A stretch of 64,000 bases of DNA, from positions 25,104 through 89,103 of the forward strand of contig JAHEYP010000011.1 in the NCBI GenBank assembly GCA_023251535.1. Reading direction: 5' to 3'. The translations under genes and the position numbers were made by a program. The notes under the pieces were generated by a model, which was given only the letters and a program-made list of their open reading frames with translations, was not told the DNA's origin and did no database searches. Source of the stretch: Bacteroidota bacterium (GTDB lineage: Bacteria > Bacteroidota > Bacteroidia > AKYH767-A > OLB10). Below are positions 1 through 34,078 of the stretch, one piece after another (positions within the stretch are counted from its first letter, which is position 1; the number at the start of each line of letters is the position of its first letter).

Positions 1-525
1 CGTACACAAAAAGTTGATTTTGTCTTCTGTATAAAAATAGGCTACATCATTGATTTCCACCATTTTAATCGTATCGCCATAGCGGATGATGATTCGCTTT
101 TGAAGTTCTTTAGCAGCAGCAACGGGGTTAATTTGCTTTAAAAGGGCCTGTACTTGATTAGTACTCAATGCCGTAAGCAATTTATACTTCTCCATTGCGC
201 GAATCAGATCATCTTTTTTTACCGGCTTTAGCAAATAGTCGATACTGTTTACTTTAAAAGCATCAAGAGCGTATTGATCATAGGCAGTAACAAAGATCAC
301 TGGTGCGGATACCTGTACTTCATTAAACACTTCGAAACTATGTCCGTCGGCAAGATGGATATCCATAAAGAGAAGATCGGGACTAGGATTCTCTTTCAGC
401 CATTTTACAGCCGATTTAATACTAACAGGGGATTCCGGGAATATTGCTCTTGGTTCAATTTCAAGAATTAGTTTTTTAAGACGTTCAGCAGCAGGTGCCT
501 CATCTTCTACAATGAGAATTTTCAT
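1..525 (-). CDS. LytTR-family two-component response regulator (3' end truncated by window start)
   Basis: My hand translation of the minus strand from ATG 525..523 gives MKILIVEDEAPAAERLKKLILEIEP...LLFMDIHLADG...IDYLLKPVKKDDL... This is a CheY-like receiver followed by the start of a LytTR DNA-binding domain. The start sits 2 nt after the upstream kinase stop, suggesting an operon. Not in the ORF track because it runs off the window. Confidence 0.8.
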   Translation of the reverse strand, partial: MKILIVEDEAPAAERLKKLILEIEPRAIFPESPVSIKSAVKWLKENPSPDLLFMDIHLADGHSFEVFNEVQVSAPVIFVTAYDQYALDAFKVNSIDYLLKPVKKDDLIRAMEKYKLLTALSTNQVQALLKQINPVAAAKELQKRIIIRYGDTIKMVEINDVAYFYTEDKINFLCT

Positions 526-527
526 GA

Positions 528-3422: not shown

Positions 3423-3424
3423 AA

Positions 3425-4060
3425 TTACTTCTGCGGCTCTAAGTTAGCAGAAAATGTTATTTGAATTTCGGGCGCTATTTTTTGATTTACAACACGAGGA
3501 ATGCGTATACTATAATCATCCAATAGCACTGTGAATTCTGAAGTAATTTTAATTGAATTTGGCTTCACTTCCACCACGCTTTTTATTAAGCGTTCACGGT
3601 TAATCCCTTTTACATTCATCATCCCCTTTGCCCTAACATTATAAGTTCCGGGCTTATTGAAATCGATTTCATCGATAATTCGTCCGGTATAGGATATAAC
3701 TGGATATTTGTCGGTATCGAGGTAGTTATCGTTAAAATGTTCGCGTTGCAAAGGACTATTAAATCCTTTAAAGCTCTCATTATTAACTGTAAAAGCAAAA
3801 TTCTTTGATTGAAGGTCGAGCATTCCTTTCAGCTCACTTGATTCAGCGATAATGGTTTCAAGCGGTGCTTCTGACTTAAATCGAACCTTAGAGGTTTTTA
3901 CGATATACACGTTAGCGGCATAAACCATCCCGAAAAAAAACAGAAATGCAATTATAAACAGTGTTATTACACTTTGCCTCTTAAAATGGATATGCCTCTT
4001 GCAATCCGGAACTAATGAATTCATTGAGATCATATCAAGAAATGGTAACGGAACCTTCAT
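3425..4060 (-). CDS. YceI-like periplasmic/membrane-anchored protein
   Basis: 211 aa. N-terminal TM anchor; body motifs 'FKSEAPLE', 'REHFNDNYLDTDKYPVISYTG' match the YceI-family pattern (HF...D.EKYP.I.F). Only a 2-nt gap to the kinase. Confidence 0.55.
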   Translation of the reverse strand: MKVPLPFLDMISMNSLVPDCKRHIHFKRQSVITLFIIAFLFFFGMVYAANVYIVKTSKVRFKSEAPLETIIAESSELKGMLDLQSKNFAFTVNNESFKGFNSPLQREHFNDNYLDTDKYPVISYTGRIIDEIDFNKPGTYNVRAKGMMNVKGINRERLIKSVVEVKPNSIKITSEFTVLLDDYSIRIPRVVNQKIAPEIQITFSANLEPQK

Positions 4061-4325
4061 AAAACTGCTACGAATTTAAATAGCATAACATCAATTTCCT
4101 ATCTTATGAATAAAAATCATGCCTAAGTAATGCCAAACGGGAATAATAGTGACTTTAACACGTAAAAACCTAAGTTAAAGCTAGCCAATTTTTGTTGTAT
4201 TTGAACCCGCCCACTTGCTGATATTAATTATCCTGTAAGAATTATTTAAAATTCTGTCAGTTTTTCAAAAATCTGCGGTAAATTCGTTAGCCCGTTTTCT
4301 GTGTAAGAAAACCAATTAATTCTTT

Positions 4326-6101
4326 ATGACATCACCAGTAATAATTGTTTCGTTAGTAATCGTTTTCATTGTAGTTTCTCTCTATAAAGAGTGGATTAAG
4401 CCCGTGATAGTATTTGTGATTGCCATTGCAATGCTAATGCTTTTGCAGGTAATCACTCCTAAAGAGGCGCTTAGCGGGTTTGCTAATGAGCAGATTGCGG
4501 TCATTTTCCTACTTCTTATATTAAGTGACGTAATCAAAAGATCAGCGGCCTTAGATCAATCGATTTACAAATTACTTCGTCCTGGATTATCCTATCGTGC
4601 ATTTATGACGCGAATGAGTTTTTCGGTAGCCAGCGTTTCTGCTTTCGTCAACAATACACCATTGGTAGCGCTCATGTTACCCTATGTTTATGATTGGTCA
4701 AAGCGTAAGAAAATAGCGCCATCGAAAGTTTTGATGCCTTTGTCGATGGCGGCTATAATTGGTGGTACGGTAACTGTTATCGGTACCTCAACCAACTTAG
4801 TAGTGAGCGGTTTGGCGGCCGATGCAGGGTTAGAGCCATTAAAGATGTTCGACTTTACCCCTGTAGGATTACCTATCATGGTAGCGATATGCTTATACAT
4901 CATTTTCCTATCGGATAAATTACTGCCAAGCAGAAAAGATGCTTTGACAGAATTCAAAGAAGATCCTCGAGAGTATTTAGTTGAAACAGTTGTTCCTTCG
5001 ACATCATCGTTTGTAGGAAAATCAATCGACGATAATAAGCTTCGAAGTTTACGAGGACTTTATGTTGTTGAAATTATAAGAGGAGATAAAACCATAGCGC
5101 CCGTTTCTCCTGAAGAGATAATTCAATCAGGAGATGTATTGATGTTTGCAGGTGAAACCGAAACGGTGATTGATCTAGTTAACGACCAAACGGATTTGTT
5201 ATTAGCTAACATCGAAACCTATCCTTTAAATGGAAAACTAGAGGTTGTTGAAGTGATTATTAGTCCGAATTCGGCATTGATTGACATTCCAATTAACAAA
5301 AGTAATTTCCGCGAGCATTATGATGCAGCTATCATTGCCGTTAATCGCCATGGAGAAAAATTAACAGGTAAAGTTGGTGAGATTGAATTGCACAGTGGCG
5401 ATTTAATTTTAGTAATTGCAGGAAAAGATTTTCGCAATCGCGCCGAGGCAGGAAGAGACTTAATTGTTGTATCTAAAAAACGTGAAATCAATAAAGCGAA
5501 TAAAGGAAAAATCAAGTGGATAATATTAGCCATTGCAGCTTCTTTCATTCTTGAAGCATTAGATATTTCAAGTTTATTCATGTCGCTGTTTGTACTTACG
5601 TCAATCGTTGCAGCAGTAGGAATAGTGACAGTTGATGAGATTAAAAAATCTTTGGATCTCGACCTCATGATTATGCTTGCGTTAGCGATTGGTGTTGGAA
5701 AAGCGATTAGTGCATCGGGTGCCGACAAAGTATTTGCCGATTCTGTTATCAGTGCTACGCAAGGCATTCATCCTACATTAGGAATTTTATTGGGACTGTA
5801 TATTGTTACCAATGTATTAACCATGTTTGTTACCAATGCAGCGGCTGTTGCCATTACTTTTCCAATAGCAGTAGCAACAGGACATCAATTGGGTGTGACA
5901 AATTTCACACCATTATTGCTCACAATTGCTTTTGCCAGCAGTGCCGACTTCCTCACACCATTTGGGTATCAAACGAACTTAATGGTTTACGGGCCGGGGG
6001 GCTATAAATTCATCGATTATATCCGCTATGGGTTCATCCCAACGCTTATCTATATGGCCTTCACCATCTTCGGTATCGCTTATTGGTATGATATGATATA
6101 A
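4326..6101 (+). CDS. SLC13/DASS-family anion permease with two central TrkA-C domains; putative sulfate transporter by context
   Basis: 591 aa, multi-TM halves flanking two TrkA_C-like segments ('GKSIDDNKLRSLRGLYVVEI', 'GKVGEIELHSGDLILV'). Heads an operon with cysC, cysD, cysN and cysQ. Confidence 0.75.
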   Translation: MTSPVIIVSLVIVFIVVSLYKEWIKPVIVFVIAIAMLMLLQVITPKEALSGFANEQIAVIFLLLILSDVIKRSAALDQSIYKLLRPGLSYRAFMTRMSFSVASVSAFVNNTPLVALMLPYVYDWSKRKKIAPSKVLMPLSMAAIIGGTVTVIGTSTNLVVSGLAADAGLEPLKMFDFTPVGLPIMVAICLYIIFLSDKLLPSRKDALTEFKEDPREYLVETVVPSTSSFVGKSIDDNKLRSLRGLYVVEIIRGDKTIAPVSPEEIIQSGDVLMFAGETETVIDLVNDQTDLLLANIETYPLNGKLEVVEVIISPNSALIDIPINKSNFREHYDAAIIAVNRHGEKLTGKVGEIELHSGDLILVIAGKDFRNRAEAGRDLIVVSKKREINKANKGKIKWIILAIAASFILEALDISSLFMSLFVLTSIVAAVGIVTVDEIKKSLDLDLMIMLALAIGVGKAISASGADKVFADSVISATQGIHPTLGILLGLYIVTNVLTMFVTNAAAVAITFPIAVATGHQLGVTNFTPLLLTIAFASSADFLTPFGYQTNLMVYGPGGYKFIDYIRYGFIPTLIYMAFTIFGIAYWYDMI

Positions 6102-6168
6102 ACGGAGGGATTAGCAGAACTCAATCCGACACATTTTTTCGAGGTAGATTCGAAATAAAGTGTGAACT

Positions 6169-6798
6169 TTGCAGCCGGATTTTCCGGACAAAAGCAGAAG
6201 CATGAAATCCACAAATATTGTTAGGCAAGATTATAAAATTACCCGTAACGACCGACTGAAATTACTGGGCCAAAAGCCCGTATTAATTTGGCTTACAGGA
6301 CTTTCCGGCTCAGGAAAGAGTACAATTGCCGATAAACTGGAACAAGAATTATACTTCAAAGGATTCAAAACTTATTTACTCGATGGCGATAATATTCGTC
6401 ATGGATTGAACAAGAATATCGACTTTACCGAAGAAGGCCGCAAGGAAAACATACGAAGGATCGGCGAAGTTGCTAAGCTGTTCATGGATGCAGGCATCAT
6501 CGTAATTACTGCCTTTATCTCCCCGTTTAAAGAAGACAGAGATCAAGTAAGAAACTTAATTGCAGAGGGAGAATTCATCGAAGTGCATGTTGATTGCCCT
6601 CTAGGAGTTTGTGAGCAGCGCGACGTAAAAGGATTGTATGCAAAAGCCCGAAAAGGTGAAATTCCCAACTTCACAGGCATATCATCGCCCTTTGAAGCTC
6701 CGGAAGCAGCGGAAATAACAGTGAAAACGGCAGAAGACAGTCTCGACGACTGTGTAAACCAAATTTTAGATTATTCGTTAAAAAGAATTAAACCCTGA
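6169..6798 (+). CDS. cysC: Adenylylsulfate (APS) kinase
   Basis: P-loop 'IWLTGLSGSGKST' in the typical CysC context 'YLLDGDNIRHGLN'. About 200 aa. The start may be the internal ATG at 6202. Confidence 0.9.
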   Translation: MQPDFPDKSRSMKSTNIVRQDYKITRNDRLKLLGQKPVLIWLTGLSGSGKSTIADKLEQELYFKGFKTYLLDGDNIRHGLNKNIDFTEEGRKENIRRIGEVAKLFMDAGIIVITAFISPFKEDRDQVRNLIAEGEFIEVHVDCPLGVCEQRDVKGLYAKARKGEIPNFTGISSPFEAPEAAEITVKTAEDSLDDCVNQILDYSLKRIKP

Positions 6799-6804
6799 TA
6801 TAGG

Positions 6805-7710
6805 ATGATTTTATACCATTTGAACCACCTGCGAGAGTTAGAAGCAGAAGCCATCTATGTGATTCGCGAAGCGGCTTCACAATTTGAACGCCCTGCGATG
6901 CTCTTTTCAGGAGGAAAAGATTCGATTGTAATGACGCATTTGGCAAGAAAAGCGTTTTATCCGGCTCGTATTCCCTTCCCTTTACTTCATATTGATACGG
7001 GACATAACTTCCCTGAGACAATTACCTTCCGTGATAAAATGGTTGAAGAGATTGGAGCTCGTTTAGAAGTGCGTTATGTACAAGATTCAATCGACAAAGG
7101 AAGAGCTAGAGAAGAGAAAGGTCCGAATGCAAGTCGTAATGTTTTACAAACGATAACTCTATTAGATGCATTAGAAGAGCTTAAGATTGATGCGGCTATG
7201 GGTGGTGCTCGACGCGACGAAGAAAAAGCTAGAGCTAAAGAACGATTCTTCTCGCATCGTGATGAATTCGGACAATGGGATCCGAAAAACCAACGTCCTG
7301 AATTATGGATGTTGTTAAATGGAAGAAAACATATCGGAGAACATTTCAGAGTATTTCCTCTCTCAAACTGGACAGAAATGGATGTTTGGATGTATATCCA
7401 ATTAGAAAATATTCCTATTCCTGAAATCTATTTCACACACGAACGTGATGTGGTAGATCGCGACGGAATGTTATTAGCATATTCGGAATACATCACCTTA
7501 AAAGAAACTGAGAAAGTTGAAAAGAAAATTGTTCGATTCCGCACAATCGGAGATATGACATGTACCGGAGCAGTTGAATCACCGGCATCATCCTTATCAG
7601 AAATCATTGACGAGATTGCAGCTTCGAGAACAACAGAACGCGGCACACGTCAAGATGATAAGCGAAGTGAAACGGCAATGGAAGATCGTAAGAAAGCCGG
7701 ATACTTTTAG
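6805..7710 (+). CDS. cysD: Sulfate adenylyltransferase subunit 2
   Basis: 301 aa PAPS-reductase-like fold, 'SGGKDS' PP-loop, full-length similarity to CysD by eye. Confidence 0.9.
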   Translation: MILYHLNHLRELEAEAIYVIREAASQFERPAMLFSGGKDSIVMTHLARKAFYPARIPFPLLHIDTGHNFPETITFRDKMVEEIGARLEVRYVQDSIDKGRAREEKGPNASRNVLQTITLLDALEELKIDAAMGGARRDEEKARAKERFFSHRDEFGQWDPKNQRPELWMLLNGRKHIGEHFRVFPLSNWTEMDVWMYIQLENIPIPEIYFTHERDVVDRDGMLLAYSEYITLKETEKVEKKIVRFRTIGDMTCTGAVESPASSLSEIIDEIAASRTTERGTRQDDKRSETAMEDRKKAGYF

Positions 7711-7770
7711 TCGACCGAAATAAGCAGCTAATACCCTTTACATTTAAATAGTATATAATTACAATATATA

Positions 7771-9045
7771 ATGAGTGATTTCAGCAAAGACGGATACATG
7801 AACATGGAATTGTTGCGTTTTACGACAGCAGGAAGTGTTGATGACGGAAAAAGTACATTAATAGGCCGTTTGCTATACGATTCAAAACAAATTTTCGAAG
7901 ATCAGCTCGAAGCCATTGAACAAAGAAGTCAGCAACGTGGATTTGAGCATGTTGATTTGAGTTTATTGACTGATGGATTAAAGGCAGAACGCGAGCAAGG
8001 AATTACAATCGACGTAGCGTATCGTTATTTCGCAACACCGAAGCGTAAGTTCATCATTGCAGATACTCCTGGGCATATTCAGTATACCCGCAATATGGTT
8101 ACAGGAGCTTCTACAGCTAACGTAGCTTTAATTTTAGTAGATGCACGTAAAGGAGTTTTAGAGCAAACCATTCGTCACTCATTTATTGCTTCGCTATTAC
8201 AAATTCCACACTTAATCATTTGCATTAACAAAATGGATTTGGTGGAATACTCGGAAGAAGCATTTAACAAAGTAGTTGAAGAATTCCGACATGTATCATC
8301 GAAATTAGATATTAAGGATGTCCACTTTTTACCTATCAGTGCATTAAAAGGCGATAATGTAGTAGACAAATCGCAAAACATGCCATGGTATCAAGGAGCA
8401 ACGTTAATGTATCTTCTAGAGAACATTCATATTAGCAGCGATGAAAATCATATTGATTGTCGTTTCCCTGTTCAGTATGTAATTCGCCCTCAACAAACCG
8501 AATATCACGATTACAGAGGATATGCGGGAAGAATTGTAAGCGGAATTTACAAACCGGGAGACAAAGTAAAAATTCTACCAAGCGGAGAATCTGCAGTAAT
8601 AAAAACAGTTGAGTTATTTGGCGAAAATATTGAAGAAGCATACGCGCCAATGTCGGTAACAATGACATTAGATCGCGATGTAGATATTAGTCGCGGAGAT
8701 ATGATAGTACGCGAAAACAATGCTCCGAATATGGAACAAGAATTCGACGTAATGATTTGTTGGATGAATGCTAACAAGCTTCAGTTAGGAGGAAAATACG
8801 CGATTCGCCATACAATAAAAGACGCTCGATGTGTGATTAAAGACATTCGATATAAAATCGACATCAACACATTGCATCGTAATGAAAATGATAAAGAAAT
8901 CGGCATGAATGACATTGCCAGAATAAACATAAAGACAACAGTTCCTTTATATTTCGATTCATATCGCAAAAACAGATATACTGGAAGTGTAATTTTAATT
9001 GACGAAGGCACTAACGAAACCGTTGCTGCCGGAATGATTGTTTAA
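7771..9045 (+). CDS. cysN: Sulfate adenylyltransferase subunit 1 (GTPase)
   Basis: 424 aa. 'LRFTTAGSVDDGKSTLIGRLL', 'DTPGH', 'NKMD' GTPase motifs. CysN/NodQ N-domain only; no fused APS kinase. Confidence 0.9.
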   Translation: MSDFSKDGYMNMELLRFTTAGSVDDGKSTLIGRLLYDSKQIFEDQLEAIEQRSQQRGFEHVDLSLLTDGLKAEREQGITIDVAYRYFATPKRKFIIADTPGHIQYTRNMVTGASTANVALILVDARKGVLEQTIRHSFIASLLQIPHLIICINKMDLVEYSEEAFNKVVEEFRHVSSKLDIKDVHFLPISALKGDNVVDKSQNMPWYQGATLMYLLENIHISSDENHIDCRFPVQYVIRPQQTEYHDYRGYAGRIVSGIYKPGDKVKILPSGESAVIKTVELFGENIEEAYAPMSVTMTLDRDVDISRGDMIVRENNAPNMEQEFDVMICWMNANKLQLGGKYAIRHTIKDARCVIKDIRYKIDINTLHRNENDKEIGMNDIARINIKTTVPLYFDSYRKNRYTGSVILIDEGTNETVAAGMIV

Positions 9046-9070
9046 AATGAAATAAATACCGCTTTTAGAA

Positions 9071-9889
9071 ATGGAAAACTACAACGAACTTCTTGCTGTC
9101 GCAATTAAAACTGCGATTTTGGCAGGAAAAGAAATTACCGGTGTTTATGCCAATGAAATAGCTGTTGAGATAAAAGACGATAAAAGTCCTTTAACTGAAG
9201 CAGACAAAAGATCGCACCTAAAAATAATGGAAGGATTGAAAGAAACGATGCTTCCTGTTTTAAGTGAAGAAGGAAAAATGATTCCTTTTGAAGAGCGAAA
9301 CAAATGGAAATTATTTTGGATGGTAGATCCACTTGATGGCACAAAAGAATTCATCAAGCGAAACGGAGAGTTCACAGTAAACATAGCATTAATTAAAGGA
9401 AATACGCCGGTAGCAGGAGTTATTTATGCTCCAATAATTAACTCTTTATATTTCGGAGCTGAAGGAATGGGGAGTTATAAAATAGAAGCCGATTACGACT
9501 ACTTGATGCATCTTGCGCTATCGCAAAACATCACCGATAAATTTATTTCAGTTGCGCAAAAACTTCCAATTAAAAACGAAGATCGTAAGTACACAGTTGT
9601 TGCCAGCAGAAGTCATATGAGTGAAGAGACGCAAGAATTTATTGAAGAACTCAGAAAAAAGCATGGCGATCTTGATTTAATATCAAAAGGCAGTTCCCTA
9701 AAACTGTGTTTAGTTGCTGAAGGCTCTGCGGACGTTTATCCGCGTTTTGCGCCAACAATGGAATGGGACACAGCCGCGGGACAAGCTATCGCCTTATACG
9801 CAGGATATAGCGTTGTTAATCCAACGGAATCTACTCCTATTGTCTACAATAAAACCGATTTATTAAATCCTTGGTTTGTTGTTGGATAA
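9071..9889 (+). CDS. cysQ: 3'(2'),5'-bisphosphate nucleotidase (PAP phosphatase)
   Basis: 272 aa. 'WMVDPLDGTKEF' inositol-monophosphatase family motif, as in CysQ. Confidence 0.85.
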   Translation: MENYNELLAVAIKTAILAGKEITGVYANEIAVEIKDDKSPLTEADKRSHLKIMEGLKETMLPVLSEEGKMIPFEERNKWKLFWMVDPLDGTKEFIKRNGEFTVNIALIKGNTPVAGVIYAPIINSLYFGAEGMGSYKIEADYDYLMHLALSQNITDKFISVAQKLPIKNEDRKYTVVASRSHMSEETQEFIEELRKKHGDLDLISKGSSLKLCLVAEGSADVYPRFAPTMEWDTAAGQAIALYAGYSVVNPTESTPIVYNKTDLLNPWFVVG

Positions 9890-9912
9890 AACGATAAACT
9901 AACATTAATTAC

Positions 9913-9945
9913 AAAGCCGGCAGTGATGTCGGCTTTTTTATTTTA
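9913..9945 (+). terminator. Rho-independent terminator after cysQ
   Basis: Hairpin aagccggc-agtgat-gtcggctt followed by ttttttatttt. Confidence 0.6.
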
Positions 9946-10127
9946 CACCTAGCTAATAACAATTACTTAACAAGAGCGTGACTATATCCTAACATTAATC
10001 ACGTAAAATTGCCTCATGAATATACTAGATAAAAGTGCAGAATTATCGAAGCGAAAAATAGAAGTATTGCTGATATCTACATTTTTCACTTTTTCATCGG
10101 CCTTCAAATATTTAAGAAGGCACCGAT

Positions 10128-11039
10128 TTGATGAAACAAACAATTTTTATTCATGATCCAATGAAAATCATGTCGTCACTTAGAAGAGAAGTAGAAATAG
10201 TAGTTATATCTGACATTCATCTAGGGACGTACGGGTGTCACGCCAAAGAGTTGGTAAGATACTTAAAGTCGATAAAACCATCAATGATTGTTTTGAATGG
10301 TGATATAATTGACATCTGGCAATTCAGCAAAAACTACTTTCCTAAATCTCACATGAAAGTCTTGAGGGAAATCATACGGTTTGCCTCCAAAGGAGTTCCT
10401 GTTTATTACATAACAGGCAATCATGATGAAATGCTACGAAGGTTTTCAGGATTTAGCTTAGGAAATTTAGAAATCAACAATAAACTGATTTTAGACCTTG
10501 ATGGTAAAAAAGCTTGGATATTCCATGGGGATGTATTTGATGTAACCATGCAACATGCTAAATGGTTAACAAAGCTTGGAGCTATAGGATATGATTTACT
10601 CATTTTGCTAAATCGCTTTACCAATTTTATTCTTGAAAAGACAGGGCGAGAAAAGATTTCATTATCCAAGAAAATTAAAAACAGCGTTAAAAAAGCCGTG
10701 AAATTCATTAATGATTTTGAAGTGACATGTGCTGACATTGCAATAAGTAACAAATACTACTATGTAATTTGCGGACATATTCACCATCCGGAAATTAAAG
10801 AAATCAAAAACGATCATGGTGCTGTTACCTATTTAAATTCGGGCGACTGGGTTGAAAATTTGACTTCACTAGAATATAATAATGGAGAATGGTCGCTTTA
10901 CAAATATGAAGATTCGATAGAAATCGAAATCATAAACGAAGATGACGACATAGTATCAATGGATAACAAAGATCTTTTCAAAATGCTTTTTGCAGAACTT
11001 AACAACCCTGGATTACATAATAACCCAAATAATAATTAA
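10128..11039 (+). CDS. LpxH-like calcineurin-type metallophosphoesterase (UDP-2,3-diacylglucosamine diphosphatase-like) with an Asn/Asp-rich C-terminal tail
   Basis: 'VISDIHLG', 'NGDIIDIWQF', 'YYITGNHDEMLRRF', 'GHIHH' parallel the LpxH motifs (DLHL / GDLFEAW / GNRDFLLG). About 60 aa longer than E. coli LpxH, with a low-complexity tail 'NNPGLHNNPNNN'. Confidence 0.5.
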   Translation: MMKQTIFIHDPMKIMSSLRREVEIVVISDIHLGTYGCHAKELVRYLKSIKPSMIVLNGDIIDIWQFSKNYFPKSHMKVLREIIRFASKGVPVYYITGNHDEMLRRFSGFSLGNLEINNKLILDLDGKKAWIFHGDVFDVTMQHAKWLTKLGAIGYDLLILLNRFTNFILEKTGREKISLSKKIKNSVKKAVKFINDFEVTCADIAISNKYYYVICGHIHHPEIKEIKNDHGAVTYLNSGDWVENLTSLEYNNGEWSLYKYEDSIEIEIINEDDDIVSMDNKDLFKMLFAELNNPGLHNNPNNN

Positions 11040-12106
11040 TGAAAATACTTTATGCCATACAAGGAACTGGAAACGGTCATATTAGTAGAGCTTTAGAAAT
11101 AGTTCCTATTTTAAAACAGAAAGGGGAAACGGATGTACTAATAAGCTCATCTCAATGGGATTTAGAATTACCATTTGAAGTGAAGTATCGATTTCATGGC
11201 CTTGGATTCGTATTTGGGAAAAATGGCGGCATTGATTTTACAAAAACATATTTAGCACTCGATACAACTAAGTTATTAGCTGAAATAAAATCAATACCAA
11301 TTAAGGATTATGATTTAATCATTAGTGATTTTGAACCAGTATCATGCTGGGCGGCTAAATTAAATAGCAAAGTATGCATAGGATTGAGTAATCAAGCAGC
11401 AACGCTTCATCCGTTAGCACCTAAGCCCAAAGGCTCAGATCCATTAGGGAAGGCTGTATTGAATCATTACGCTCCGGTAACTCACTCCTACGGATTTCAT
11501 TTTAAATCCTTTGATGAAACTGTTTCAACTCCAATTATAAGAAAAGAGATAAGAGAAGCCGCAATAAGCAACAAAGGACATGTAACAGTTTACCTTCCTT
11601 CGTATGATGATAAAAGAATTATAGAAAAGCTTAAGCACATCACAAACTGTGAGTTTCATGTATTCAGCAAACATATTCGAAAAGAATACAAAAAAGTAAA
11701 TTTTACAGTATTGCCGCTAACAAATCAAACATTCATTGAAAGCTTAGCTTCGTGCAATGCCGTAATAACAAATGCAGGATTTGGAACAACATCAGAAGCA
11801 CTTTTTTTAGGCAAGAAATTGTTGGTAATCCCAATGAAGAATCAATACGAACAACACTGTAATGCTGCAGTGCTAAAATCAATGGGCGTTACAGTAATTA
11901 AAAGTTTGAAGAAAAAGCATATTGATACGATCAAAGAATGGTTAAAACACGGCCGATCAATAGAAGTAGAATATCCAGATAATACAGAAAAGATAATTGA
12001 CAAAATAATCAAGAATCATTTACATGAAAATATTATTGTCAATTCGAAAAGAAAGGAAATGAACTTCTTTGAGAAAATTATGACAATAAATCTTGCTGAA
12101 AATTAA
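11039..12106 (+). CDS. Glycosyltransferase, GT28/MGT-like (MurG-fold, MJ1255-type)
   Basis: 355 aa. N-terminal 'MKILYAIQGTGNGHISRA' is typical of the GT-B family. Start overlaps the lpxH-like stop (TAATG). Confidence 0.55.
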   Translation: MKILYAIQGTGNGHISRALEIVPILKQKGETDVLISSSQWDLELPFEVKYRFHGLGFVFGKNGGIDFTKTYLALDTTKLLAEIKSIPIKDYDLIISDFEPVSCWAAKLNSKVCIGLSNQAATLHPLAPKPKGSDPLGKAVLNHYAPVTHSYGFHFKSFDETVSTPIIRKEIREAAISNKGHVTVYLPSYDDKRIIEKLKHITNCEFHVFSKHIRKEYKKVNFTVLPLTNQTFIESLASCNAVITNAGFGTTSEALFLGKKLLVIPMKNQYEQHCNAAVLKSMGVTVIKSLKKKHIDTIKEWLKHGRSIEVEYPDNTEKIIDKIIKNHLHENIIVNSKRKEMNFFEKIMTINLAEN

Positions 12107-12110
12107 TAAT

Positions 12111-13460
12111 ATGAAAAACGATTTCATTTGGGGTGCTGCGACATCAGCCTATCAAATAGAAGGAGGGAAATTCGCTGACGGGAAGAGATCATCGATATGG
12201 GATGAATTTTGCAAGAAGAAGAATGCCATAGTCAATAATCAAAACGGAAACAAGTCATGTGAGTTTTACTATCACTACAAAGAAGACATTCGACTTTTGG
12301 CCAGTCTGAATATTAAGAACTTCAGATTTTCGGTCTCGTGGCCAAGGGTAATGCCTTTGGGGCCGGGATTTATAAATCAAAGAGGATTAGATTTTTACGA
12401 TCGATTAACGGATTATTGTCTCGAGAATAAAGTAGATCCTTGGGTGACATTATATCATTGGGATTTACCTCAAGAATTAGAAGATAGAGGAGGCTGGACA
12501 AATAGAGATATAGTTAGTTGGTTTAGCGAATATGCTGCTATAATAGTGAATCGCTTAGGCGATCGAGTGAAACATTGGATGGTTCTTAATGAACCAGTTG
12601 TTTTTACAGGGGCAGGATATTTTTTAGGAGTACACGCCCCAGGAAAAAAAGGCGTAGACAACTATTTGCCTGCACTTCATCATGCGGCATTGACGCAAGC
12701 TGCAGGAATTAAAACAATTCGCTCTGCCTGCGCTGACGCACATATTGGAACGACTTTTTCATGCTCGCATATAACTCCTTTAAATCCGCATAACATAGAA
12801 GATATATTGGCGGCTCAGAAAACAGATGCACTAATCAATCGACTTTTCATTGAACCACTATTAGGATATGGCTATCCGACATCAACCCTACCCTTTTTAA
12901 ATAAATTGGAGCCATACATCAAATCGAATGATATTGAAAATTTAGTAGCTATTCCGGATTTTATCGGGATTCAGAACTATACCAGAGAAGTTGTATCACA
13001 TTCGAAATTTACTCCCTACTTAAACGCTAAAATTATTGATGCAAAGACAAGGAATGTAGATCGAACGATAATGAATTGGGAAATTTATCCCGAATCAATT
13101 TACGAGATGATAAAACAATTTAATAGATACAAAGAAGTAAAAGAGATTTATATTACTGAAAATGGAGCTGCTTTCAATGACCGGAAAATTGACGGACAAA
13201 TAAATGATGAGAAAAGAGTCAACTATTTAAAATCGTATATTGAACAAGTTTTAAGAGCTAAAAATGAAGGATTAAAAGTTGATGGCTACTTTGTTTGGTC
13301 ATTATTAGACAACTTTGAATGGTCGGAAGGATATACACCACGTTTTGGCATTGTTCATGTTGATTTTGAAACACAGCATAGAACGGTAAAAAAATCTGGC
13401 AAATGGTATAGTAATTACATCAAAGAATTTCAAGAACGAAATAGTTCAATTGTGATATAA
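12111..13460 (+). CDS. bglB: GH1 beta-glucosidase
   Basis: 'FIWGAATSAYQIEGG', acid/base 'LNEP', nucleophile 'ITENG'. The ORF track starts at 12093; the ATG at 12111 (MKNDFIWG...) fits GH1 N-termini better. Confidence 0.9.
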   Translation: MKNDFIWGAATSAYQIEGGKFADGKRSSIWDEFCKKKNAIVNNQNGNKSCEFYYHYKEDIRLLASLNIKNFRFSVSWPRVMPLGPGFINQRGLDFYDRLTDYCLENKVDPWVTLYHWDLPQELEDRGGWTNRDIVSWFSEYAAIIVNRLGDRVKHWMVLNEPVVFTGAGYFLGVHAPGKKGVDNYLPALHHAALTQAAGIKTIRSACADAHIGTTFSCSHITPLNPHNIEDILAAQKTDALINRLFIEPLLGYGYPTSTLPFLNKLEPYIKSNDIENLVAIPDFIGIQNYTREVVSHSKFTPYLNAKIIDAKTRNVDRTIMNWEIYPESIYEMIKQFNRYKEVKEIYITENGAAFNDRKIDGQINDEKRVNYLKSYIEQVLRAKNEGLKVDGYFVWSLLDNFEWSEGYTPRFGIVHVDFETQHRTVKKSGKWYSNYIKEFQERNSSIVI

Positions 13461-13509: not shown

Positions 13510-14271
13510 TTAATGACAAACAAATAATTTTTTAATAGAAGTTCCCTTTTTATTTTTCACTTCAACAAAGTACATTCCACTTTTAAGGGGCTCAAGGTTT
13601 AATGTAGCCAAATTATTTTGACTATAAATAGAGTCTGAAAATACTGAAAAACCCATTTGATTAAAAACTATTAGTTGAAACTCTTCAGAACCCTCAATGA
13701 TCGCTTTTTCATTTGCAGGATTAGGAAACAAATTGAATTTTTGAGCTGAATTTTCAGATACAGAAAGGATAGTAGGTAATATAATCTTGATACTACATTG
13801 ATTTCCGTTTAGGTAAGCTTTTAAACTATACAAATCAGTATTAGTAAACGTTGGAGTTAGTAAATTAAAACGAACTAAAGCTAAAGGAGTAAGAGTGTCA
13901 CATGGCTGGAAGCTGCTACTAGTGAAGCGAACAGTAGAATCATTAGAATTATAGTAAGACAATGGCATTAAATATGTAGTAAGGTCTAATATAGTATCAT
14001 ATTCCAAAGCATTATGATCATATTTTAAGGAAAAATCGAGAGCATAAATAGTATCATCAGAAATAATTGAAACTGGAACTTCTAAAGGAGAAGAAGAAAG
14101 ATTGATTTGAGACAAATCAAATACAACAGAATCACCTGAATCAATGGTTGAAATTTTAGCCGAATTAATATTTCCTTTAATCGAAGGAGTTTTAGTGGAA
14201 TTCTGGCTATAAATGCTTGAAGAAACCATTAAGCATAATAAAACCAGTTTAATTTTTAGTGAATTAACCAT
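13510..14271 (-). CDS. Secreted protein with T9SS C-terminal sorting domain; body homologous to the pre-CTD region of the 1134-aa neighbour
   Basis: Signal peptide; C-terminus 'FNLFPNPANEKAIIE...GMYFVEVKNKKGTSIKKLFV' is a Por/T9SS CTD. Body motifs ('ALDFSLKYDHNALEY', 'TVRFTSSSF', 'AYLNGNQ') parallel 'SLDFAMMYNQSSLHF', 'VLRFTSNSL', 'AYVNGER' in 14421..17825. Confidence 0.6.
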   Translation of the reverse strand: MVNSLKIKLVLLCLMVSSSIYSQNSTKTPSIKGNINSAKISTIDSGDSVVFDLSQINLSSSPLEVPVSIISDDTIYALDFSLKYDHNALEYDTILDLTTYLMPLSYYNSNDSTVRFTSSSFQPCDTLTPLALVRFNLLTPTFTNTDLYSLKAYLNGNQCSIKIILPTILSVSENSAQKFNLFPNPANEKAIIEGSEEFQLIVFNQMGFSVFSDSIYSQNNLATLNLEPLKSGMYFVEVKNKKGTSIKKLFVCH

Positions 14272-14360
14272 TTGTTTGTCTTTTTAGATATTTCAAATTT
14301 ACGAAGGGCAAGTATTTTGAAAGTCAAGAGCAATTTATCATTCTGTAAACTTTACATTAA

Positions 14361-14398
14361 ATAAAAAAGGTCAGTCCCCGACCGGGGACCAACCTTTT
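14361..14398 (-). terminator. Rho-independent terminator downstream of the 1134-aa gene
   Basis: GC-rich hairpin gtcccc-gacc-ggggac (14374..14389) flanked by A/T runs. Confidence 0.6.
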
Positions 14399-14420
14399 TG
14401 GAGAAAAACAGAAACAATTA

Positions 14421-17825: not shown

Positions 17826-17856
17826 TTTGATAATTATAAAAGATGTTTAGATGTGA

Positions 17857-19533: not shown

Positions 19534-19711
19534 TTGGGTTATTGATTTAGTTTAGATTCGATTTAATACAATTAAGGCCTTTTAACGAAAGCAAATGTAG
19601 AGGGCCAACAAAAATTTAAATCAAACAAGAACTTACTAAATCATTAAACTAATTAACCTAAAAAGTTAAGAGCGAAAAATGTATTTACAGTACTTTAACA
19701 TAGAGGAAACA

Positions 19712-19750
19712 TTCTAAAACAAAATTGGCTGTTACTTAACAGTAACAGCC
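19712..19750 (-). terminator. Rho-independent terminator after the FISUMP gene
   Basis: Perfect 10-bp stem ggctgttact-taac-agtaacagcc (19727..19750), with a T-run on the minus strand. Confidence 0.7.
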
Positions 19751-19769
19751 AATGCAAATTTTGTTTTTT

Positions 19770-20489: not shown

Positions 20490-20521
20490 AATTCAAATTT
20501 TGATTTCGTAAATACAACGAC

Positions 20522-21844: not shown

Positions 21845-21848
21845 TTTT

Positions 21849-27595: not shown

Positions 27596-28948
27596 ATGAT
27601 CAAAAAACTGCTAAATAAATCGGGAGAAGGCGAAAGCGATGGGTCTTTCTTCTTGAAGAAGAGCTTTTTGGCGCTGATTCTCAGGGCCGGAGGGATGCTC
27701 ACGCAGTATATTTTCATTTTTGTGATTGCTCGCCTCTACGGACCAAAAGAGCAAGGAAGCTTTACTCTTTCCTTCACCATTCTACAATTATTTGCCATCT
27801 TTTCGCAGATGGGGCTCGATAATCGACTCACCAGAGTGATTGCTGCCAATAGCGATTCCGAAGGCAAAAACATCGTCCGTTCAACTTATCTGCAGTCACT
27901 TCGATTCACACTTACAGCTGCCGTAATTTGGGCAATACTCACCTATTTGGCTTCACCGTGGTTGGCGTCAGTCTTCTTTAGTAAACCAGAACTTACCGAT
28001 GATTTACGTATGACCTGCCTAGCATTTGTGCCCTTCGTTATTATCGGCTTAAACAGTGCAGGCTTCCGAGGATATAAAAACATGACGGGCTTTATGATCT
28101 TTAGGGCCCTACAACCATTGATCGCAGCAATTCTTCTGCTCATTTTTTATTACGGAAAAATGGAATTGGGTGCTATACAAGCTTATAGTATTACCACCAT
28201 CATCATTTGTATCTTCAGCTTTACTACTTGGTATAAGTTTAGTAAAATCGGTGAAGCCGAAACTATACCAACTCCAAATGCAGGTTCAGTGATGATGGAA
28301 TCGATGCCATTGATGCTTACCGGTTCTATCTTTTTTATTCTTGGATGGACAGACAACATTATTCTGGGAATTTTCAGAACTTCGGAAGAGGTAGGTATTT
28401 ATGATATGGCTTATAAGCTTTCCACTTTATCGGCTATAGTTTTATTAGCAGTAAATGCCATTCAAGCACCAACCTTTGCTCAACTCTATAATAAGGGTGA
28501 AATGAAGCGACTTCAAGGATTCGTTTTTCGCTCTACTAAATTGCTTTTTTTCACCTCACTACCTGTTACTTTAGTGCTTTGCCTTTTCCCTGAATGGATA
28601 TTGGGAATATTTGGACCAGGATTTAAAGCTGCTGCCCTTACACTTATTATCTTATCTATTGGTAACTTTGTAAACAGCATTACCGGCTCTATCGGCATCT
28701 TGCTGCAAATGTCGGGGAAACAGAAAGAATATAATCGAATAATAATGATTGCTGCAGGGGGCAGTATTCTAATGAACTTTATTTTGATTCCGAGAATTGG
28801 AATTGTTGGTGCGGCTATCTCATCAACAGTTGCTAAAATATTTCAGAATCTGGCATCCGTTGCATACGCAAAAAGATCGATGGGAATACTTTCATTGTAT
28901 TTACCGGGAATTGATAAAATATTTAAAGTAAAAGATAAAAATAACTGA
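27596..28948 (+). CDS. MOP-superfamily polysaccharide biosynthesis protein / Wzx-like flippase
   Basis: About 450 aa with more than 10 TM helices, PST-family look. The ORF track starts at a TTG (27557); the ATG at 27596 (MIKKLL...) with an upstream TAnTTTG-like element at 27553..27559 is more plausible. Confidence 0.65.
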   Translation: MIKKLLNKSGEGESDGSFFLKKSFLALILRAGGMLTQYIFIFVIARLYGPKEQGSFTLSFTILQLFAIFSQMGLDNRLTRVIAANSDSEGKNIVRSTYLQSLRFTLTAAVIWAILTYLASPWLASVFFSKPELTDDLRMTCLAFVPFVIIGLNSAGFRGYKNMTGFMIFRALQPLIAAILLLIFYYGKMELGAIQAYSITTIIICIFSFTTWYKFSKIGEAETIPTPNAGSVMMESMPLMLTGSIFFILGWTDNIILGIFRTSEEVGIYDMAYKLSTLSAIVLLAVNAIQAPTFAQLYNKGEMKRLQGFVFRSTKLLFFTSLPVTLVLCLFPEWILGIFGPGFKAAALTLIILSIGNFVNSITGSIGILLQMSGKQKEYNRIIMIAAGGSILMNFILIPRIGIVGAAISSTVAKIFQNLASVAYAKRSMGILSLYLPGIDKIFKVKDKNN

Positions 28949-28962
28949 GCGGAAGAAAAGCG

Positions 28963-31793: not shown

Positions 31794-33062
31794 ATGATTA
31801 ACCAAAGCATAAACCCTGTATTTAAAGGACTGATGTATCAGTTGCTTTGGTTTTTATTTTTCGCTAATGCCTTCGCTTGCTTTGTGCGTATTCCCGCCAG
31901 AGCAGTTGTTGATGTTAGCTCAGGAATATTCCTTGGTATTTTGGTTATACATTATGGTTACGAATGGTTAAGAGCATTAAAAACAAAAAAAGTTAAAATG
32001 ATTTCGTTGTTGATGCTGCCATTAATTTTAATGCCAGTAATCAGCGCTATTCAAGCAGCTCGCGTCTTTGGACAACCTGCTATTTACGGATTTCTTGCAC
32101 AACGTCAAGTGTTCATGGCACTGTGTGCACATTTCATTGTTACTGCTTTAGAACGAAAGTGGCTCTCAGAAGAAAGCTTTGAAAAGTACTTTGTGCGTTC
32201 ATTGCAAATTTTGCTTTTCATTTTTCTTATCTTTTATATGTTCGTGAATCCTTCAAGATTCATCGATACTGACTTCGTAACTTTAAGTCCTAATAAAGGG
32301 TTCAGGTATGAATTCCCAGACTCATGTATTTACGGATTGTTTTTATATTCCCTTTTTAAAGTATGGATTCTAAAAGAAAAAAAATGGTGGCTCACTGTTT
32401 TATTTAGCCTTTTCTACATTTTAGTTTATCTACTCGATCGTACACAGCTCGTAGCACTCGCCGGAACAGTTGGATTATATGTACTACTAAACTTCAGTGT
32501 ATCTCGAATGATTCGCATGGTGATTTTAGGAGCATTCGGAATTATATTGGTTTTTGGATTACTCGCCTTTATAGCTCCCGATTTCCTCGATAAAAACTTA
32601 AAACTTTACGCTACAGCTTTTGAAACACTCACAGGAGAAAAAGTAGCCGAGTCATCTACTAATATTCGTTTCCTCGAATCGAAAATTGCATTAGCAGGAT
32701 TTACTGATCACCAAGCTATCGGTGTAGGATTTTTAAGTACTCGATGGAATGATGGATTTAGAATGATTAATAAATACTTCTATCCTACCGACGTTGGCTT
32801 ATTGGGCAACTTATATGTTTATGGCATCATTGGAACATTGGTGTTTTATATTCCTTTTCTATTGGCGATGAAATATCACTTTCGCTTACGCAAGGAACAT
32901 GCTACACTATTGGTGGCATCGCAATATGTACTAATATTTTTGTTTGCCGATATGCTTACTGCTGCGACAAATCAAAAATTCTATGGAGTAATAGCAGTGT
33001 TTTTCGGAATAGTTTACTATTACAGATACAGAGAAAATAAAGAAGAGGAGTTAGCGATATAA
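31794..33062 (+). CDS. Multi-TM Wzy/O-antigen-ligase-like polymerase
   Basis: 422 aa, about 10 to 12 hydrophobic helices with one larger loop. It sits between sulfotransferases in the glycan cluster. The family assignment rests on topology and context only. Confidence 0.45.
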   Translation: MINQSINPVFKGLMYQLLWFLFFANAFACFVRIPARAVVDVSSGIFLGILVIHYGYEWLRALKTKKVKMISLLMLPLILMPVISAIQAARVFGQPAIYGFLAQRQVFMALCAHFIVTALERKWLSEESFEKYFVRSLQILLFIFLIFYMFVNPSRFIDTDFVTLSPNKGFRYEFPDSCIYGLFLYSLFKVWILKEKKWWLTVLFSLFYILVYLLDRTQLVALAGTVGLYVLLNFSVSRMIRMVILGAFGIILVFGLLAFIAPDFLDKNLKLYATAFETLTGEKVAESSTNIRFLESKIALAGFTDHQAIGVGFLSTRWNDGFRMINKYFYPTDVGLLGNLYVYGIIGTLVFYIPFLLAMKYHFRLRKEHATLLVASQYVLIFLFADMLTAATNQKFYGVIAVFFGIVYYYRYRENKEEELAI

Positions 33063-34078
33063 TGAGTGATACAGGTATGATATTTATTGTTGGGAACAGT
33101 CGTTCGGGAACTACTATGCTCGGACGAATGCTCGGAAAAAATACTTCTGTTTTTTCTTTTCCTGAGTTACACCTTTTCGGTCCATGCATCCCTCATGGAA
33201 AAGAATTAGAAATTATTGACAAAGCTACTGCAATAAAAATATTTTGTTGGTTGCTCGATGTCTCTACAAAAGGATTTCATCACGAAAGAAATCCGGATCA
33301 ATTTTCAGAGCAAGCAACACAACTAGCAAACGAGTTTTATAAACCAGGTGTCGATGCATGGGATGCTTACAGACATTTTGTAATTCATGTAACGAAAACA
33401 AACGGCAAATTAATTCCTTGTGAAGATCTACCGGGAAATATTTTTAAGCTAAGTCAACTATTTCAAAAATTTAACGACGTAAAAGTTGTTCATATCGTTC
33501 GTGATCCTCGTGATGTGGTATTATCGCAAAAGAATCGTCACTTGCGCAGAAAAATGGGCGGACATTACGTTTCAAAAAAAGAAGCGTTGCGTGTTTGGTC
33601 AAACTATCACCCGTTCGTAATTTCTCGTTTATGGAAAAATGCTGTCTCTTCTGCAATTAATATCGAGAACAAAAATATTCTTACTGTTCACTTCGAAGAT
33701 TTATTAGCAAAACCGGAAGAAGTTCTTCGTCAAATTTGCGTTCATACAGGAATAATATTTGAACTTAATATGCTAAATGTCCCTCAAGTTGGTTCTTCTA
33801 CGCAAAAGGATGATCCTTCTAAGATGGGAGTAGACGCTGGAAGATCTGGTGCTTGGCAACGTGGCGGATTAAGCGATGCGGAAATTGCTATATGTGAAAA
33901 CGTAAACGGCGATATAATGCAAAGGTTGAATTATCCTTTGAGTGGAAAAAAATTGAGTTTGACCTCAAAAGTAGGCTATGCTGTTTTACTACCTTTCAAA
34001 GGCACATTAGCCTTGGCATTAAACTGGAATCGGACAAAAGGACTTCTAAACTTCTTAATTCACCGAATCTTCAAATAA
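33062..34078 (+). CDS. PAPS-dependent sulfotransferase (Sulfotransfer_3-like)
   Basis: 'IFIVGNSRSGTTMLGRMLG' P-loop-like 5'-PSB and 'HIVRDPRDVVLSQ' 3'-PB. Start overlaps the upstream stop. Confidence 0.65.
   Translation: MSDTGMIFIVGNSRSGTTMLGRMLGKNTSVFSFPELHLFGPCIPHGKELEIIDKATAIKIFCWLLDVSTKGFHHERNPDQFSEQATQLANEFYKPGVDAWDAYRHFVIHVTKTNGKLIPCEDLPGNIFKLSQLFQKFNDVKVVHIVRDPRDVVLSQKNRHLRRKMGGHYVSKKEALRVWSNYHPFVISRLWKNAVSSAINIENKNILTVHFEDLLAKPEEVLRQICVHTGIIFELNMLNVPQVGSSTQKDDPSKMGVDAGRSGAWQRGGLSDAEIAICENVNGDIMQRLNYPLSGKKLSLTSKVGYAVLLPFKGTLALALNWNRTKGLLNFLIHRIFK

Follow-up and report, generated by a model that had tools for sequence, protein, structure and literature searches.

The glycan and glycolipid sulfotransferases (STs) of rhizobia and mycobacteria receive their PAPS from a dedicated or duplicated ATP sulfurylase and APS kinase, namely NodP/NodQ and CysD/CysNC, respectively. 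Bacterial sulfated polysaccharides are rare, and the genes for their biosynthesis are poorly known. The synechan (xss) cluster of Synechocystis PCC 6803 is reported also to encode Wza/Wzc-type export and regulators. In Bacteroides thetaiotaomicron, the importer BT_0412 and the PAPS-synthesis genes BT_0413-0415 lie directly beside the PAPS-dependent ST BT_0416 (Le et al., 2022; PMC9417993), and in Vibrio sp. KMM 8419 the sulfated capsule locus carries a second copy of cysNDC together with STs, a combination proposed to be a 'hallmark' of sulfated polysaccharide synthesis (PMC11641403). This design thus has published precedents in Bacteroides, Vibrio, rhizobia and mycobacteria, and the enzymology is textbook; the locus described here, in a 64-kb stretch of DNA (the window) from an environmental, uncultured member of the Bacteroidia, is a further example.

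The closest precedent, by gene layout and phylum, is the Bacteroides BT_0411-BT_0416 cluster. Five relatives of the window operon (L002, L003, L007, L011 and L083) have the same layout as this cluster, ST-permease-cysC-cysD-cysN-cysQ, but the Bacteroides genes adjoin a single steroid ST, whereas the window has four STs, the nearest of them 19 kb from the operon, in a Wzx/Wzy glycan cluster. The Vibrio locus is of a similar kind in that PAPS-synthesis genes and STs are co-located in a polysaccharide locus, but it is gammaproteobacterial and relies on an ABC transporter (Kps) for export instead of Wzx/Wzy, and neither cysQ nor an SLC13 permease is reported within it (PMC11641403), while the window operon has both. 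The synechan cluster (PMC8205485) is of the Wzx/Wzy type with embedded STs, and that of the window appears to be of the same type; neither Wza/Wzc nor an initiating transferase was found in the window, and among the systems compared here a link to a PAPS operon is particular to the Bacteroidota loci. The first-pass annotation had likened the operon to rhizobial nodPQ and mycobacterial cysDNC, an analogy that is fair with regard to function but fails with regard to architecture: in NodQ and mycobacterial CysNC the CysN and CysC parts are fused, whereas the CysN (424 aa) and CysC (198 aa) of the window are separate. In addition, those operons are not known to contain a permease or cysQ, and no nod or sym genes accompany the window locus. 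Lastly, the enzymes of the E. coli cys regulon are homologous (CysC 52%, CysD 52% and CysN 48% identical), but the window operon begins with cysC, includes cysQ and a permease, and has no cysH/cysIJ within 64 kb, and its context is one of STs where that of E. coli is one of reductases.

The operon consists of five co-directional genes at 4326-9889, encoding the permease, CysC, CysD, CysN and CysQ in that order (Table 1), with intergenic gaps of 100, 6, 60 and 25 bp. A hairpin at 9913-9936, followed by TTTTATTTT, was the best-ranked terminator-like site in a scan of 3900-10400, and both the spacing and the terminator suggest that the five genes form one transcription unit ending at this hairpin. 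The first-pass annotation had described the same five genes at these positions, with short gaps and a terminator after cysQ, and its description holds in full, with strong family assignments. A trio of genes for an LpxH-like enzyme, a glycosyltransferase and a GH1 protein follows, with the terminator and 241 bp between it and cysQ; it possibly belongs to the same glycan locus, although its membership is uncertain.

Table 1. Features of the sulfate-activation operon and of the sulfotransferase/glycan cluster (positions in the window).
Feature	Position	Strand	Evidence
Operon 5' leader/promoter region, intergenic	4061..4325	+	265-bp gap; divergent from YceI-HK-RR genes
SLC13/DASS-type anion permease, two central TrkA-C domains	4326..6101	+	Pfam matches
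cysC, adenylyl-sulfate (APS) kinase	6202..6798	+	NF003013 291 bits (cutoff 163); APS_kinase 2.1e-68
cysD, sulfate adenylyltransferase small subunit	6805..7710	+	NF003587 459 bits (cutoff 195)
cysN, sulfate adenylyltransferase GTPase subunit, stand-alone	7771..9045	+	NF003478 593 bits (cutoff 590); TIGR02034 568 bits
cysQ, 3'(2'),5'-bisphosphate nucleotidase (PAP phosphatase)	9071..9889	+	TIGR01331 279 bits (cutoff 229)
Intrinsic terminator 3' of cysQ	9913..9946	+	10-bp stem (5 GC pairs), 4-nt loop, T-rich tail
LpxH-like metallophosphoesterase, MJ1255-family glycosyltransferase and GH1	10131..13460	+	Family matches; conserved neighbours downstream of cysQ
Wzx-type polysaccharide flippase, first gene of ST cluster	27596..28948	+	Polysacc_synt 4.9e-25
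PAPS-dependent sulfotransferases ST1, ST2 and ST3	28963-29922, 29935-30852, 30849-31790	+	Sulfotransfer_1, Sulfotransfer_3
Wzy-like polymerase/O-antigen-ligase-like membrane protein, between third and fourth ST	31794..33062	+	Wzy_C 9.1e-06
Fourth sulfotransferase, ST4	33062..34078	+	Sulfotransfer_3 8e-25
GH5 glycanase	34135-35319	+	Cellulase 2.7e-14
GT4 glycosyltransferase, end of glycan cluster	35336-36514	+	Glycos_transf_1 1e-19

At the level of sequence, the identities of CysC, CysD, CysN and CysQ are well established, and production of APS and PAPS would be expected from their families. CysC, CysD and CysN all score above curated family cut-offs and have intact catalytic motifs: the P-loop GLSGSGKS in CysC, the PP-loop SGGKDS in CysD, and the G1, G3 and G4 motifs in CysN. 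Of the 632 positions of the bifunctional model, CysN covers just 21-430, and thus has no fused APS kinase. CysQ has the metal-binding motifs DPLDGT (residue 86) and WDTAA (residue 232). An alternative TTG start of cysC lies at 6169, but both the relatives and the ENA gene call favour the ATG form. In the permease, a CitMHS/Na_sulph_symp membrane domain (CitMHS 3.5e-64; Na_sulph_symp 2e-13) is split around two TrkA_C domains (2.2e-21), and its homologues carry the name 'SLC13 family permease'. Of 37 Bacteroidota loci, 17 have it next to cysC/cysD/cysN/cysQ, as does no locus outside this phylum, and from this linkage sulfate is the putative substrate; one paralogue (L084) is unlinked to cys genes.

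Wzx and the PAPS-type STs form one co-directional cluster at 27.6-36.5 kb. All four STs annotated in the first pass at 28963-34078 were located, and all four have PAPS-binding motifs. ST1-ST3 contain the 5'-PSB motif xKxGTT and the 3'-PB motif RxPxxRxxS; since the motifs begin at about residue 12, these proteins have no signal peptide. The solved structures nearest to them are those of a bacterial ST (3RNL) and of the heparan-sulfate NDST/3-OST domains. ST4 has SRSGTT and VRDPRDVVLS motifs and a weak kinship to the CurM ST. The Wzy_C match of the putative polymerase is below the gathering score (26 vs 31.7 bits).

At least 12 further Bacteroidota loci share the gene order of the window, and the operon arrangement is thus more than chance. 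In four of the related loci (L008, L009, L010 and L087), cysQ leads directly into a wzx and ST cluster. The genes after cysQ in L008 are wzx (45% identity to that of the window), four STs, wzy (38%) and GH5 (46%); in L009, 7 bp separate cysQ and wzx; and in L087 the two genes overlap by 4 bp, with a Wzy-like orthologue of 26% identity. L086 carries permease-cysC-cysD-cysN-cysQ-LpxH-like-glycosyltransferase-GH1-wzx (60%)-ST on one strand throughout, and the LpxH-like/glycosyltransferase/GH1 trio also lies downstream of cysQ in L002, L003, L004, L006 and L083. In the five relatives with the Bacteroides layout, 7-31 bp separate the ST from the permease gene downstream of it, and in L089 the operon and the wzx/ST cluster are divergently arranged. 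All in all, at least 11 related loci have ST genes within or right beside the operon, arranged in four different ways, and the preservation of this linkage across the four argues for functional coupling. In more distant loci from Cytophagia and Flavobacteriia, sugar-nucleotide and polysaccharide-export genes are the commonest neighbours of cysC-cysD-cysN-cysQ (epimerase/dehydratase in 12 loci, and also UDP-Glc dehydrogenase, DegT, Wzm/Wzt and Wzc-like proteins), and the neighbours in L085 and L088 are likewise of this type.

We consider it probable that the operon is a self-contained supply and recycling module for the sulfate donor that feeds glycan sulfation. The SLC13-type permease would import sulfate, CysD/CysN would form APS with expenditure of GTP, and CysC would phosphorylate APS to PAPS, to be consumed by cytoplasmic STs, the main candidates being the four in the Wzx/Wzy cluster. 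As these STs have no signal peptide, they would sulfate a sugar repeat while it is still lipid-linked on the inner side, before its outward transfer by Wzx. CysQ would convert the inhibitory by-product PAP to AMP and thereby keep the STs running, and the expected product would be a polysaccharide with multiple sulfate groups, either on the surface or extracellular. The resemblance of ST1, ST2 and ST3 to carbohydrate (heparan-sulfate) STs counts for glycan sulfation, and the earlier proposal that the operon provisions PAPS for the four STs gains support from the physical joining of both clusters in the relatives. The layout of the window itself speaks against it: a stretch of 17.7 kb with opposite-strand genes and a terminator separates the operon from the ST cluster, the two are not co-transcribed, and no motif of at least 9 bases common to their leaders was found. 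Also counting against it, sulfate as substrate of the permease is deduced from gene context, the glycan cluster contains only one glycosyltransferase, and no initiating phosphoglycosyl transferase, Wza or Wzc was found in the window; these may be encoded elsewhere in the genome.

With regard to the reductive branch, Pfam scans of all 51 window ORFs of at least 90 aa found no cysH, cysI/J or sir in the 64 kb, and a six-frame tblastn of the window with E. coli CysH and CysI matched only the CysD paralogue, so that the absence claimed in the first-pass annotation is real for the window. Among 37 Bacteroidota loci, none had cysH or cysI within 10 kb of a cysD of the window's type. The PAPS is likely to serve sulfation rather than assimilation, the absence of the reductive branch covering the 64 kb alone. 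The operon could also be the sole sulfate-activation system of the cell, feeding both the STs and a cysteine pathway of PAPS reductase and sulfite reductase encoded elsewhere, which we regard as unlikely. The five gene families also occur in the enterobacterial cys regulon, and in E. coli cysDNC, cysJIH and cysQ lie at separate sites, which makes absence from 64 kb weak evidence. Furthermore, the cysNDC of the Vibrio capsule locus is a second copy beside an assimilatory one, indicating that both uses can coexist, and cysI-cysH-cysC-cysD-cysN loci exist in Verrucomicrobiota, so cysC-cysD-cysN can be assimilatory. Counting for sulfation, 26 of 34 Bacteroidota loci have cysQ directly after cysN, compared with none of 33 other loci (0 of 28 in Verrucomicrobiota), cysH does not co-occur with in-operon cysQ in any of these 26, and the loci linked to cysH/cysI are all verrucomicrobial and have neither cysQ nor permease; since loci with cysQ and loci with cysH thus divide along phylum lines, this contrast is no independent test. 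What argues against such dual use, in addition to the count of 0 of 37, is that the operon recurs inside glycan/ST clusters and that some cultured Bacteroidales, Dysgonomonas among them, do not reduce sulfate for assimilation (bioRxiv 10.1101/2020.08.11.247353). The operon leader points the same way: it matched no Rfam family, either at the gathering threshold or at E<=5, and so contains no SAM or other riboswitch, and the lack of a riboswitch or cys-type leader counts for a sulfation module.

It is improbable that PAPS is used mainly to sulfate small molecules or lipids, in the manner of the steroid sulfotransferase BT_0416 of Bacteroides, rather than polysaccharide. This reading would fit the five loci in which a single ST without adjoining glycan genes precedes the permease, the sulfation of cholesterol by the closest experimentally studied cluster (PMC9417993), and the weak relationship of ST4 to the polyketide ST CurM, and the LpxH-like enzyme and glycosyltransferase after cysQ would be compatible with a glycolipid. 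However, the upstream ST of those five relatives is most similar (40-45%) to ST2 of the window, a glycan-cluster gene, and carbohydrate STs are closest to ST1, ST2 and ST3. Moreover, the window permease has no adjoining ST, nor does the leader contain an ST remnant, and all four STs lie among wzx, wzy, GH5 and GT4. An E. coli-type operon that serves assimilation only, making PAPS for CysH alone, with CysQ detoxifying the PAP from CysH and the proximity of STs being coincidental, is highly implausible: the gene content does equal the first half of the classical pathway and our view of the genome is confined to the window, but the STs inside or abutting the operon in the relatives and the cysQ/wzx overlap in L087 argue against coincidence, and four PAPS-type STs need PAPS in any case.

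The most interesting aspect of a sulfation module of this kind is that sulfated polysaccharide may be produced by environmental Bacteroidia. Somewhat speculatively, a clade of uncultured Bacteroidia from freshwater, soil and wastewater may build a multiply sulfated, glycosaminoglycan-like surface polysaccharide with up to four cytoplasmic STs, a dedicated PAPS operon and perhaps no sulfate assimilation. Such bacteria are usually seen as degraders of sulfated glycans, and would then be producers instead. Chemical surveys have found sulfated glycoconjugates in the EPS of granular sludge, and little is said to be known of their producers and pathways; if the above is true, these bacteria would be candidate producers of the compounds reported in sludge and biofilm EPS (PMC10483923). 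In one mat metagenome study, sulfotransferases were not found in its Bacteroidetes MAGs. Permease-cysC-cysD-cysN-cysQ joined to wzx and several STs provides a simple genomic signature of candidate producers among environmental Bacteroidia, and the genes of this locus and its relatives form a compact set for supplying and regenerating PAPS that could serve in engineering sulfated glycans.

The five genes that the first-pass annotation had placed on one strand at 4326-9889 were recovered from the ORF list and by family searches (see table), with gaps of 100, 6, 60 and 25 bp from 5' to 3'. Their PP-loop, P-loop, GTPase and CysQ metal-binding motifs are intact. CysC has an alternative TTG start at 6169, and relatives as well as the ENA gene call favour the 198-aa form. 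The terminator claimed 3' of cysQ holds up as well, with a 10-bp stem containing five GC pairs and a T-run, and is the top terminator-like site of the region. From its gene context and its SLC13 plus TrkA-C architecture, which is also that of the algal SLT Na+/sulfate transporters, we infer that the permease imports sulfate.

Features of the window discussed in the text
Feature	Position	Strand	Remarks
LytTR response regulator, Y_Y_Y/Reg_prop LytS-type histidine kinase, YceI-like protein	1-4060		Divergent from operon
SLC13/DASS-type permease	4326-6101	+	CitMHS 3.5e-64, two TrkA_C domains, Na_sulph_symp
CysC	6202-6798	+	291 bits; 198 aa
CysD	6805-7710	+	459 bits
CysN	7771-9045	+	593 bits, barely over the equivalog cutoff (590); 424 aa without a kinase fusion
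CysQ	9071-9889	+	279 bits, cutoff 229
Terminator	9913-9936
LpxH-like metallophosphoesterase, MJ1255/VC2487-family glycosyltransferase (GT), GH1	10131-13460
Minus-strand block	13510-27341	-	Between GH1 and wzx
SusC-like TonB-dependent receptor	21849-24914	-	Within the block
wzx, ST, ST, ST, wzy, ST, GH5, GT4	27596-36514
Sulfotransferases ST1-ST3	28963-31790	+
Sulfotransferase ST4	33062-34078	+
Further glycan-related genes	38325-40310, 40375-44383		Just past the ST cluster
Respiratory/anaerobic marker genes	48649-62641
Rrf2, NrdD, NrdG	52245-55675
Cytochrome c/NrfD/4Fe-4S set	59305-62641

The four sulfotransferases (STs) claimed at 28963-34078 are real, and a Wzy-like gene interrupts the set. 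All four carry the PAPS-binding 5'-PSB and 3'-PB motifs, starting at about residue 12 and thus leaving no room for a signal peptide. ST1, ST2 and ST3 are closest to the bacterial ST 3RNL and to heparan-sulfate N- and 3-O-sulfotransferase domains, while ST4 shows weak kinship to the CurM ST; an NCBIfam search of the STs, wzy and GH5 matched no curated model. The cluster has a single GT, and neither an initiating transferase nor Wza/Wzc was found within the 64-kb window. The genes just past the cluster encode a TPR protein weakly matching TMTC/DUF1736 (GT-C-like), GlmS, a DUF4270 protein and a 275-aa protein whose sole match is a starch-synthase catalytic domain.

That the operon supplies PAPS to these STs, as the annotation had proposed, is supported by the joining of operon and ST genes in relatives. 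A CysD search of genome contigs gave 80 loci, which were mapped with the window proteins and E. coli references, and seven more, with precomputed Pfam labels, came from contigs encoding permease homologues. The same order of five genes recurs as a unit in Bacteroidota, unchanged in close relatives (loci L002, L003, L007, L008, L011, L083 and L086) and found again in Cytophagia-type loci (L023, L027, L030, L032, L058, L068, L069 and L071). Linkage to STs is kept across four different arrangements. An ST 40-45% identical to ST2 of the window lies immediately 5' of the permease on the same strand in L002, L003, L007, L011 and L083; cysQ runs straight into a wzx/ST cluster in L008, L009, L010 and L087, with a 7-bp gap in L009 and a 4-bp overlap in L087; a wzx...ST-GT4-Wza set diverges from the permease in L089; and in L086 the order of the window is extended on one strand as perm-cysC-D-N-Q-LpxH-like-GT-GH1-wzx-ST, with a wzx 60% identical to that of the window. 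The genes 3' of cysQ in L008 are orthologues of the window cluster (wzx 45%, four STs, wzy 38%, GH5 46%). In the window, all genes of the block between GH1 and wzx are on the minus strand, among them T9SS cargo (Por_Secre_tail and Big_7 domains) and a Fib_succ_major protein. Since GH1 is followed directly by wzx and ST in L086, this block, relative to L086, interrupts what would otherwise be one contiguous, co-directional glycan-sulfation locus. A decayed ST gene 5' of the permease, where relatives have one, was rejected, the tblastn signal there not being significant.

Other genes also accompany the operon. L002, L003, L004, L006, L083 and L086 share with the window the trio ending in GH1 3' of cysQ, which in L086 continues into wzx-ST; its metallophosphoesterase scores 59 bits, under the LpxH cutoff of 134, and the trio perhaps serves a glycolipid or primer. 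The divergent LytTR/LytS-type/YceI-like arrangement recurs in L002-L008, L011, L083 and L086, and this set could act as a regulator of the operon or be no more than inherited synteny. The close relatives L004, L005 and L006 (CysD 87-88%) lack the SLC13 permease beside their cysC-D-N-Q, and no ST lies within reach of it; in L083 a SulP-family transporter is encoded 4 kb 3' of cysQ. The means of sulfate entry may thus be interchangeable.

Signals shared by operon and cluster were not apparent. No k-mer of at least 9 bases is common to the permease leader (4061-4325) and the wzx leader (27342-27595), and TAnnTTTG is absent from the former and occurs once in the latter, at 27358, about 240 bp 5' of wzx. 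A sigma-70 promoter scan gave 23 sites where 20 were expected, and is thus uninformative for a Bacteroidota genome. The whole window had no Rfam match at the gathering threshold, and a riboswitch or structured leader before the permease or cysC was discarded, matches at E<=5 in 3950-6300 being noise only.

The claimed absence of cysH, cysIJ and sir from the window was upheld by Pfam scans of every ORF of 90 aa or more (51 in all), and a six-frame tblastn search using the CysH and CysI of E. coli (from the reference locus L082) found no reductase. The CysH query matched only the paralogue CysD, which disposes of a concealed cysH or cysI in unannotated frames of the window. As an indirect precedent, Dysgonomonas genomes (Bacteroidales) are without assimilatory sulfate reduction, and sulfate cannot replace cysteine there (bioRxiv 10.1101/2020.08.11.247353). 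We consider that the operon probably serves sulfation, either exclusively or predominantly. Dual use, in sulfation and assimilation, is appreciably less probable, and deserves some weight: E. coli has cysDNC, cysJIH and cysQ each at separate places, so that absence from 64 kb is not decisive.

Assimilatory use also draws on Verrucomicrobiota loci, which pair cysC-D-N with cysH or cysI. In L013, L018, L029, L041, L044 and L050 the order is (cysI)-cysH-cysC-cysD-cysN, with CysH 61-69% identical to that of E. coli; this is a clear assimilatory arrangement, unlike that of the Bacteroidota loci. Altogether, cysH (with or without cysI) adjoins cysC-D-N in 6-7 Verrucomicrobiota loci and in none of 37 Bacteroidota loci, while cysQ lies directly 3' of cysN in 26 of the 34 Bacteroidota loci with enough flank (Verrucomicrobiota, 0/28; others, 0/5), and the two genes never occur together across the compared loci. 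The split coincides with the Bacteroidota/Verrucomicrobiota divide and is thus descriptive only, not an independent statistical test. Distant Bacteroidota copies of the operon are also at polysaccharide loci: among the genes beside cysC-D-N-Q in Cytophagia and Flavobacteriia, the most frequent include NAD-dependent epimerase/dehydratases (12 loci), with UDP-glucose dehydrogenase, DegT aminotransferase, Wzm/Wzt exporters and Wzc-like kinases also common, and in L085 and L088 perm-cysQ stands beside sugar-nucleotide genes, including rml genes.

That PAPS goes to small-molecule or lipid sulfation and not to glycan is improbable given the Wzx/Wzy setting of the STs, and is entertained because the upstream ST of relatives is solitary and cholesterol is the compound sulfated by the best-studied homologous cluster. 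Assimilation as the sole role is very hard to credit beside the recurrent ST linkage. Sulfonolipid (capnine) synthesis was rejected as a sink for PAPS: it depends on sulfite or cysteate, hence on a reductase, of which the window has none.

Under the favoured sulfation reading, the permease would bring sulfate in, CysDN and CysC would produce PAPS, the cytoplasmic STs would sulfate a lipid-linked repeat unit ahead of its outward flip by Wzx, and CysQ would clear the inhibitory by-product PAP.

Two further genes were seen in the distant loci: many of those from Cytophagia/Flavobacteriia (L023, L046, L060, L062, L065, L069, L071, L081 and L085) have cysD and cysN separated by a small gene for a '23S rRNA intervening sequence protein' (PF05635), and a DUF2061 membrane protein is encoded 5' of cysC in six Flavobacteriaceae loci.

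As for the organism, window G+C is about 36%, and C-terminal sorting domains for type IX secretion are present in many of the proteins. Sequences identical to CysQ occur in metagenome contigs only; the nearest CysD proteins (86-90% identical) belong to MAGs of uncultured 'Bacteroidia bacterium', including a lake-series one (L003, Rohwer bin), and the closest permease homologues include soil-metagenome proteins. The source is thus an uncultured bacterium of the Bacteroidota. L009 ('Ww66') and L010 ('Fred_18-Q3...') are presumably wastewater MAGs, to judge from their isolate names. L002 and L008 are titled 'uncultured Bifidobacterium sp.' yet have Bacteroidia-type genes, with CysD in the same 86-90% range, and these titles look like taxonomic mislabels. 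The marker genes at 48649-62641, which also include a beta-eliminating lyase, cytochrome c/COX1-like and MbnP/MauG-like genes, together suggest a facultative or microaerophilic lifestyle.

By the published description, the closest precedent for the operon is BT_0411-0416 of B. thetaiotaomicron, where the putative PAPS genes BT_0411-0415 (BT_0412 a proposed sulfate importer, BT_0413-0415 proposed PAPS synthesis enzymes) lie beside the sulfotransferase BT_0416; B. ovatus and B. fragilis share the arrangement (PMC9417993). A Vibrio sulfated-capsule locus has a second cysNDC copy with STs, in its authors' view a 'hallmark' of the making of sulfated polysaccharide (PMC11641403), and the Synechocystis synechan locus, xss, is a Wzx/Wzy cluster with STs (PMC8205485). 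The likening to nodPQ and mycobacterial cysDNC was apt as to function, yet the window locus falls outside those families, the defining CysN-CysC fusion being missing. The enzymes are textbook, and the design of a PAPS supply module beside sulfotransferases is already published. More interesting is the comparative picture, in which Wzx/Wzy clusters with at least three STs are fused, in an environmental Bacteroidia clade, to an operon predicted to import sulfate, make PAPS and recycle PAP. One mat study found zero STs in its Bacteroidetes MAGs (PMC9723792). Sulfated glycoconjugates are reported to be common in the EPS of granular sludge, where producers and pathways have been called not well known (PMC10483923), and the Bacteroidia operon-ST loci nominate candidate producers of such glycoconjugates.
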